Origin: Escherichia coli
Lineage (GTDB): Bacteria > Pseudomonadota > Gammaproteobacteria > Enterobacterales > Enterobacteriaceae
Assembly (NCBI RefSeq): GCF_003018235.1
Contig: NZ_CP027437.1
Length of the DNA stretch: 64,000 nt
Direction: 5' to 3' (one strand)
The notes beneath the pieces are model-generated. The model had not been told where the DNA came from, ran no database searches, and worked only from the letters and a program-made list of their open reading frames with translations. The translations under genes and the position numbers were made by a program. Shown here one piece after another: positions 39,966-40,967 of this stretch. Each line of letters opens with the position of its first letter. The stretch's first letter is position 1.

Positions 39966-40967
39966 ATGAGTAAAGTTGGTATTAACGGTTTTGGTCGTAT
40001 CGGTCGACTGGTGTTGCGTCGATTACTTGAAGTCAAAAGCAACATAGACATTGTCGCTATTAATGATCTCACTTCCCCAAAAATTCTCGCCTACCTGCTG
40101 AAACATGATTCAAACTACGGACCATTCCCCTGGAGCGTTGATTTTACGGAAGATTCACTTATCGTTGATGGAAAAAGTATCGCGGTTTACGCCGAAAAAG
40201 AGGCTAAAAATATTCCATGGAAAGCGAAAGGCGCAGAAATCATTGTCGAATGTACTGGCTTTTATACCTCCGCCGATAAATCGCAGGCGCACCTTGATGC
40301 TGGTGCGAAGAAGGTGTTGATTTCCGCCCCTGCCGGTGAAATGAAAACCATCGTTTATAACGTCAATGACGACACACTGGATGGCAACGACACCATTGTT
40401 TCCGTGGCGTCATGCACCACTAATTGTCTTGCACCGATGGCCAAAGCCTTGCACGACAGTTTCGGAATAGAAGTCGGCACGATGACGACCATTCATGCCT
40501 ATACCGGCACTCAGTCACTGGTGGATGGCCCGCGTGGTAAAGATTTACGTGCTTCACGCGCAGCGGCAGAAAATATCATTCCCCACACTACGGGGGCGGC
40601 AAAAGCCATTGGTCTGGTGATCCCGGAACTGAGCGGCAAACTGAAAGGTCATGCGCAACGCGTACCCGTGAAAACAGGTTCGGTGACTGAACTGGTGTCT
40701 ATTCTTGGAAAAAAAGTGACTGCCGAAGAGGTGAACAACGCGCTTAAAAAGGCGACAAACAATAATGAGTCATTTGGTTATACCGATGAAGAAATAGTCT
40801 CTTCCGATATCATTGGCAGCCATTTCGGTTCGGTGTTTGATGCCACGCAAACGGAAATTACCGCCGTGGGCGATTTACAGCTGGTGAAAACGGTCGCCTG
40901 GTACGATAACGAATATGGCTTCGTCACACAGCTCATTCGCACCCTCGAAAAATTCGCTAAACTCTGA
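39966..40967 (+). CDS. gapC: glyceraldehyde-3-phosphate dehydrogenase C, intact reading frame
   Basis: 333-aa uninterrupted [23 protein letters not shown]... with [10 protein letters not shown] active-site region. Confidence 0.9.

Follow-up and report, generated by a model that had tools for sequence, protein, structure and literature searches.

Does an Escherichia coli strain in which gapC is uninterrupted make a second glyceraldehyde-3-phosphate dehydrogenase (GAPDH) beside the housekeeping enzyme GapA, and would such a strain be out of the ordinary? The question was raised by a 64,000-nucleotide stretch of E. coli DNA (the window), in which the sequence-only reading had found gapC as an intact frame of 333 codons with conserved NAD-binding and active-site regions. 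Describing the gene as a frameshifted pseudogene in K-12, it had suggested that this strain may express a second functional GAPDH. From the analysis described here it is very likely that the feature is an ordinary, intact E. coli gapC at its usual site, encoding a homotetrameric NAD-dependent phosphorylating GAPDH (EC 1.2.1.12).

The gapC gene and its product

The coding sequence of gapC, a type I NAD-dependent phosphorylating GAPDH, extends from 39966 to 40967 on the plus strand of the window, an assignment made from the open reading frame (ORF), the Pfam domains, the family model TIGR01534 and the identity to the gap gene of E. coli ETEC1738. The frame is the sole ORF in this interval. It starts with ATG and runs for 333 codons to a TGA stop with no internal stop or frameshift, so that the description of the gene as one uninterrupted frame is borne out. 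Both Pfam domains were matched over the entire profile: Gp_dh_N (PF00044), the Rossmann NAD-binding domain, at residues 3–102 (E=8.9e-36) and Gp_dh_C (PF02800), the catalytic domain, at residues 155–313 (E=3.6e-58). The curated NCBIfam equivalog model for type I GAPDH (TIGR01534, EC 1.2.1.12) was passed with 446.2 bits, the cut-off being 367.2, and was covered at profile positions 1–330 of 330. Going by these profile matches, the frame is no chance ORF. Over all 1002 nt the DNA is 100% identical to the annotated gap CDS of ETEC1738, while the exact protein is present on 116 public contigs and belongs to a cluster, built at 90% identity and labelled type I GAPDH, that comprises 4797 different sequences.

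GapC and GapA, the housekeeping GAPDH (b1779 in K-12), share the fold, the reaction, the catalytic residues and the NAD motif, although the two are 47% identical when aligned and are encoded at different loci. In the alignment both the NAD-binding loop, G8-F-G-R-I-G13 (GxGxxG), and the pair N33-D34 are kept. An acidic residue after this loop, which in GapC is Asp34, selects for NAD over NADP. The segment S149-C150-T-T-N-C154 and His177 are unchanged with respect to GapA and identical in the PDB entry 7C5F, and Thr180, Thr209-Gly210, Arg232 and Asn315 are further residues common to GapC and GapA. On the plus strand of the window the active-site motif S-C-T-T-N (codons 149–153), which includes the catalytic Cys150, is found at 40411–40425 and the codon for the catalytic His177 (CAT) at 40494–40496; the assignments derive from the GapA alignment and from mutants of EcGAPDH1, the protein of entry 7C5F, with H177A being the relevant mutant for the histidine. 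The conservation that had been claimed for the NAD-binding and active-site regions is therefore confirmed by the GapA alignment, with Cys150 and His177 both present. When GapC was compared with the PDB, GAPDHs of the Gram-positive type scored 414–484 bits, as against about 305–313 bits for those of the eukaryote type (lobster, yeast). GapC is a 'bacterial-type' GAPDH paralogue. GapA is the 'eukaryote-like' form.

The gene is flanked by two genes on the minus strand. The divergent neighbour is cybB (cytochrome b561/superoxide oxidase; 39247–39777; Pfam PF01292), which is 97.7% identical to K-12 cybB over 531 nt, and the convergent neighbour is aldA (aldehyde dehydrogenase A; 41008–42447; Pfam Aldedh, E=5e-167), which is 98.5% identical to K-12 aldA. 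The order cybB/gapC/aldA is common to the window, MG1655 and ETEC1738, and by its syntenic position between cybB and aldA the window ORF is the gapC orthologue. Upstream of cybB, as in K-12, are the RydC sRNA (39173–39236, plus strand, 100% identical to K-12), the Sok antitoxin RNA (38472–38623, plus strand, 109.7 bits) and the hokB toxin gene (38618–38767, minus strand, 99.3% identical to K-12). A ydcA homologue is also seen at 38839–38991 on the minus strand. Its alignment to K-12 ydcA starts at nucleotide 22 (97.4%), so that the N-terminus or signal peptide is apparently unlike that in K-12; in ETEC1738 the locus is annotated as a shorter hypothetical gene of 156 nt.

Lesions in gapC and the state of the gene across E. 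coli

In MG1655 gapC (b4493; formerly gapC_1/gapC_2, b1417/b1416) is annotated as a pseudogene of 1001 nt. It occupies the same cybB–aldA locus as the window gene, with the same upstream region and Shine–Dalgarno sequence, and the alignment of the two (K-12 gene at L001:3714–4714) gave 96.7% DNA identity. Codon 39, which is AAA (Lys) in the window (40080–40082, plus strand; alignment column 115), is a TAA nonsense codon in K-12. Further on, the pairwise gaps show that an A7 homopolymer at gene positions 744–750 (40709–40715, plus strand) is reduced to A6 in K-12, a deletion of 1 nt that causes a frameshift. The approximately 100 bp flanking this A6/A7 run are highly polymorphic. With TAA39 and A6 together only a truncated product can be made from K-12 gapC, whereas the window gene has neither lesion. 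The description of K-12 gapC as a frameshifted pseudogene was thus right about both the pseudogene and the frameshift, but incomplete, since the change of AAA to a nonsense codon at position 39 is also present.

The K-12 frameshift sits in an A-run, a context that is error-prone in long-read assemblies, and the intact frame of the window might on these grounds be put down to a sequencing or assembly artefact in which a homopolymer miscall restored A7. However, the window is also free of the nonsense codon of K-12, a lesion that is due to a substitution and not to a homopolymer error, and its complete gene is reproduced without a single difference in ETEC1738, an independent complete genome. 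A7 is, moreover, found in all 12 other intact alleles examined, in addition to the 116 contigs with the exact protein. A missed frameshift or sequencing error was rejected on account of the wild-type codon 39 and the identical ETEC1738 gene; these two observations effectively refute an artefact, to which we attach a negligible probability.

Of 5426 complete E. coli genomes, 5417 gave a match to gapC, and in 5409 of them at least 80% of the gene was covered. Identities ranged from 90 to 100% and were at least 95% in all but 90 records. Five of the matches are on records classed as plasmids, where a core gene of the chromosome would not be expected; the replicons could have been binned wrongly, or plasmids could carry large segments of the chromosome. 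The state of codon 39 was assayed with allele-specific 55-mers centred on the codon, such that a central mismatch blocks the 28-mer megablast seed. With these probes the K-12 TAA39 allele was detected in 1155 of the 5426 complete genomes (~21%), while the AAA probe matched 3881 genomes. About 380 genomes were seeded by neither probe, presumably because nearby SNPs break the seed.

Intact alleles were sampled by taking 40 evenly spaced matches across the whole ranking, 17 of which were inspected. The 40 comprise 31 with the full 1002 nt, eight with 1000–1001 nt and one that is truncated by an IS1-associated deletion in which the 3′ end of aldA is also lost. For all 13 of the inspected alleles of 1002 nt the PGAP annotation is an intact 'type I glyceraldehyde-3-phosphate dehydrogenase'; twelve of these were translated and gave 333 amino acids, and the remaining one, that of ETEC1738, has the same sequence as the window. 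Most E. coli genomes, about four out of five, have an intact gapC. The contrast with K-12 had implied that an intact gene is something unusual, and this does not hold, given that the locus is present in almost every complete genome, that only about a fifth carry TAA39 and that every inspected full-length allele is intact. In E. coli SCPM-O-B-7615 (L011:3001–5178) an IS1A element has taken the place of the last four-fifths of gapC, together with the 3′ end of aldA, a deletion which is an independent route to the loss of gapC. In the O111:H8 strain 08-4455 (L006) aldA is frameshifted.

All three of the shorter alleles from natural isolates that were inspected (L007, L008 and L009) are pseudogenes with both of the K-12 lesions. 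Two of the three, from the phylogroup-A-like pangolin strain S171-1 and the frog-farm strain ES1 (L008 and L009), have in addition lost 1 nt from an A5 run at gene position ~988, and this third lesion shows that the gapC pseudogene is continuing to decay. The sources of TAA39 carriers include human, swine, bovine, poultry, river water, pangolin and frog-farm sediment. As the K-12 lesions are so widespread in natural isolates they are an inherited trait of a lineage and no product of laboratory domestication, and we infer that the pseudogene is a derived state, gapC having been lost in the particular lineage to which K-12 belongs. Two later papers (PMC2949598, PMC1796617) cite the study of Espinosa-Urgel & Kolter (1998, Mol Microbiol) for a gapC that is intact in isolates from the environment but truncated in laboratory strains. 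The gene of the window corresponds to the 'environmental isolate' state of that study as it is described there. The laboratory-strain picture conveyed by the same papers, on the other hand, differs from what was found here, where the 1155 genomes with the K-12 TAA39 allele include natural isolates, and the lesions in those isolates contradict what has been published about laboratory strains, namely that they 'accumulate mutations' in gapC.

Catalytic activity and alternative functions

The GapC protein of the window aligns over its full length with PDB entry 7C5F ('EcGAPDH1'), and with about a dozen related entries, with 329 of 333 residues being identical. The four differences are Ile29, Asp104, Lys262 and Asn265, which are Val, Glu, Gln and Thr, respectively, in EcGAPDH1. 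The same four residues separate the window from the O111:H8 allele WP_000048667.1, which is the commonest GapC allele and occurs on at least 1000 contigs. Judged from the alignment, the four substitutions are all conservative, and none of them falls within a catalytic motif. Structures of EcGAPDH1 are reportedly also described by Zhang et al. in a 2020 article in Acta Cryst F. The numbering of the catalytic pair, Cys150/His177, in the EcGAPDH1 structures (7C5F, 7C5G-R and 7C7K) is that of the window protein, and EcGAPDH1 is a tetramer with NAD as its cofactor. According to the 2021 study (Zhang et al, 2021, Biomolecules; PMC8615399), EcGAPDH1 was crystallised with NAD, G3P and BPG and is an active NAD-dependent GAPDH with a high kcat and a Km of 0.73 mM for G3P. 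Mutation of the catalytic residues, as reported in that study (PMC8615399), gave an inactive enzyme for C150A, a reduction in activity of ~3.8x10^4-fold for C150S and one of ~8x10^3-fold for H177A. The name 'gapC' is absent from the searched text of this work (PMC8615399).

The Cys/His mechanism is established for the GAPDH family, and the residues present in GapC would support it here too. In GapC the thiolate of Cys150, activated by His177, would attack G3P to give a hemithioacetal, from which a hydride would be transferred to NAD+; phosphate would then cleave the resulting thioester to yield 1,3-bisphosphoglycerate. The suggestion that the strain may have a second functional GAPDH gains support, by analogy, from the activity of an allele that is the same at 329 of 333 residues. 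The gapC gene of the window encodes a real second GAPDH, which is probably functional.

A protein with the GAPDH fold could have a different main role, as an Epd-like enzyme, as a partner of ArsJ or as a moonlighting or secreted protein. Paralogues of GAPDH have diverged before in E. coli (epd/gapB), and GapC gave substantial partial scores with the models for the ArsJ-associated GAPDH (307 bits) and for Epd (280 bits). Against this, the near-identical EcGAPDH1 turns over G3P and NAD with a high kcat (PMC8615399), and we consider it very unlikely that the main role of GapC lies elsewhere. Two of these candidates were rejected individually. For erythrose-4-phosphate dehydrogenase (Epd/GapB) the scores were below the cut-offs, at 276 against 530.55 bits for TIGR01532 and 280 against 539 bits for NF010058. 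For the ArsJ-associated GAPDH (NF033735) the 307 bits compare with a cut-off of 450, and the neighbours are cybB and aldA with no arsJ. The other GAPDH subfamily models in NCBIfam were all below their own cut-offs for the window protein.

The intact state of gapC, its contrast with K-12, the activity of the enzyme and its structure are all already known. Taken with the frequencies given above, K-12 is unrepresentative of E. coli at gapC, with most strains carrying two phosphorylating GAPDHs, GapA and GapC. Metabolic models based on K-12, inferences about the essentiality of gapA and engineering designs may not transfer to other strains.

Selection, expression and the source lineage

Among five intact alleles (the window, L004–L006 and L010) dN/dS was 0.019–0.066 in the 10 pairwise comparisons, at dS of 0.07–0.19. 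With ratios of 0.02–0.07 and differences that are mostly synonymous, the GapC protein is under strong purifying selection. The dS values are high for a comparison within a species.

On the plus strand a putative Shine–Dalgarno sequence, AGGAG, can be read at 39955–39959, 6 nt before the ATG, and it is invariant among seven aligned alleles. The divergent intergenic region between cybB and gapC (39778–39965, plus strand), where the gapC promoter would be expected, is 188 bp long, equal to its length in K-12; 18 of 191 aligned columns of this region with the ATG are variable among seven strains. A consensus promoter scan upstream of gapC gave a single weak sigma-70-like site at 39771–39800, which was no better than in shuffled sequence. 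Sigma-S RNA polymerase binds between cybB and gapC in K-12 (PMC4447067), and the gapC_1 transcript of K-12 was found to be 5.6-fold RpoS-dependent in glucose-limited chemostats (PMC4512719). One of the authors of the 1998 study states in a later review that expression of gapC is favoured in fresh water (PMC2949598).

These signals bear on whether the gene could be intact but cryptic, with a frame that was kept by chance or recent ancestry and has no useful expression, so that it is a pseudogene in waiting. Such a state would be in keeping with the loss of gapC, without obvious cost, in about one-fifth of E. coli genomes, with the housekeeping role belonging to GapA and with the lack of a strong sigma-70 promoter in the consensus scan. 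However, the low dN/dS at dS of up to 0.19 indicates long-term selection on the protein, the Shine–Dalgarno sequence and the upstream region are conserved in the seven strains, even K-12 has an active promoter that depends on RpoS (PMC4512719, PMC4447067) and environment-specific expression has been reported, as the review states (PMC2949598). It is quite unlikely that gapC is cryptic in this sense. With an ordinary intact gapC, the reading that we prefer, the window strain would make active GapC beside GapA, as a conditional, RpoS-dependent isoenzyme of stationary phase or of particular environments.

A more far-reaching proposal is that gapC encodes a niche isoenzyme for cold, freshwater or stationary-phase conditions, the retention or loss of which marks ecological lineages of E. 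coli. The double-lesion pseudogene in ~21% of genomes would then reflect relaxed or reversed selection in a natural lineage. We regard this proposal as rather doubtful. Of the 14 intact alleles that were compared, none but those of the window and ETEC1738, which are identical, has Asp104; this rare allele and the deep dS (up to 0.19) could reflect old allelic lineages that have been maintained or exchanged at gapC. The identity of the gene would be the same under this proposal.

The differences between gapC of the window and that of K-12 are clustered at gene positions ~699–801, and from its distribution this cluster may be a recombination patch. The genes adjoining gapC are 96.3–99.3% identical to K-12, so that the gapC locus is no clear outlier. 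Over the 20 kb around the gene (30000–50000 of the window) the best complete genomes, three pig isolates including ETEC1738, are 99.3% identical, while the remaining ones are at 98.7% or below, in a range of 95–99% over 5417 matching records. Only four records have a gapC that is at least 99% identical to the window. The E. coli lineage from which the window comes has been sparsely sampled. The 100% identity to ETEC1738 in gapC, as against 99.3% in the surrounding 20 kb, hints at possible mosaicism.

A 9-bp G+C-rich hairpin, identified by folding and from an alignment of seven strains in which its stem is kept, lies at 40975–40997, where gapC and aldA converge. Its folding energy is −18 kcal/mol (z = −5.85), and none of 200 shuffled sequences folded equally well. 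The hairpin is a probable terminator shared by the two genes. No call was made at this hairpin by the terminator scan, as there is no clear U-tract on either strand. In strain MFDS1022581 the stem of the hairpin is longer (GGCGGAGGG/GCCTCCGCC).
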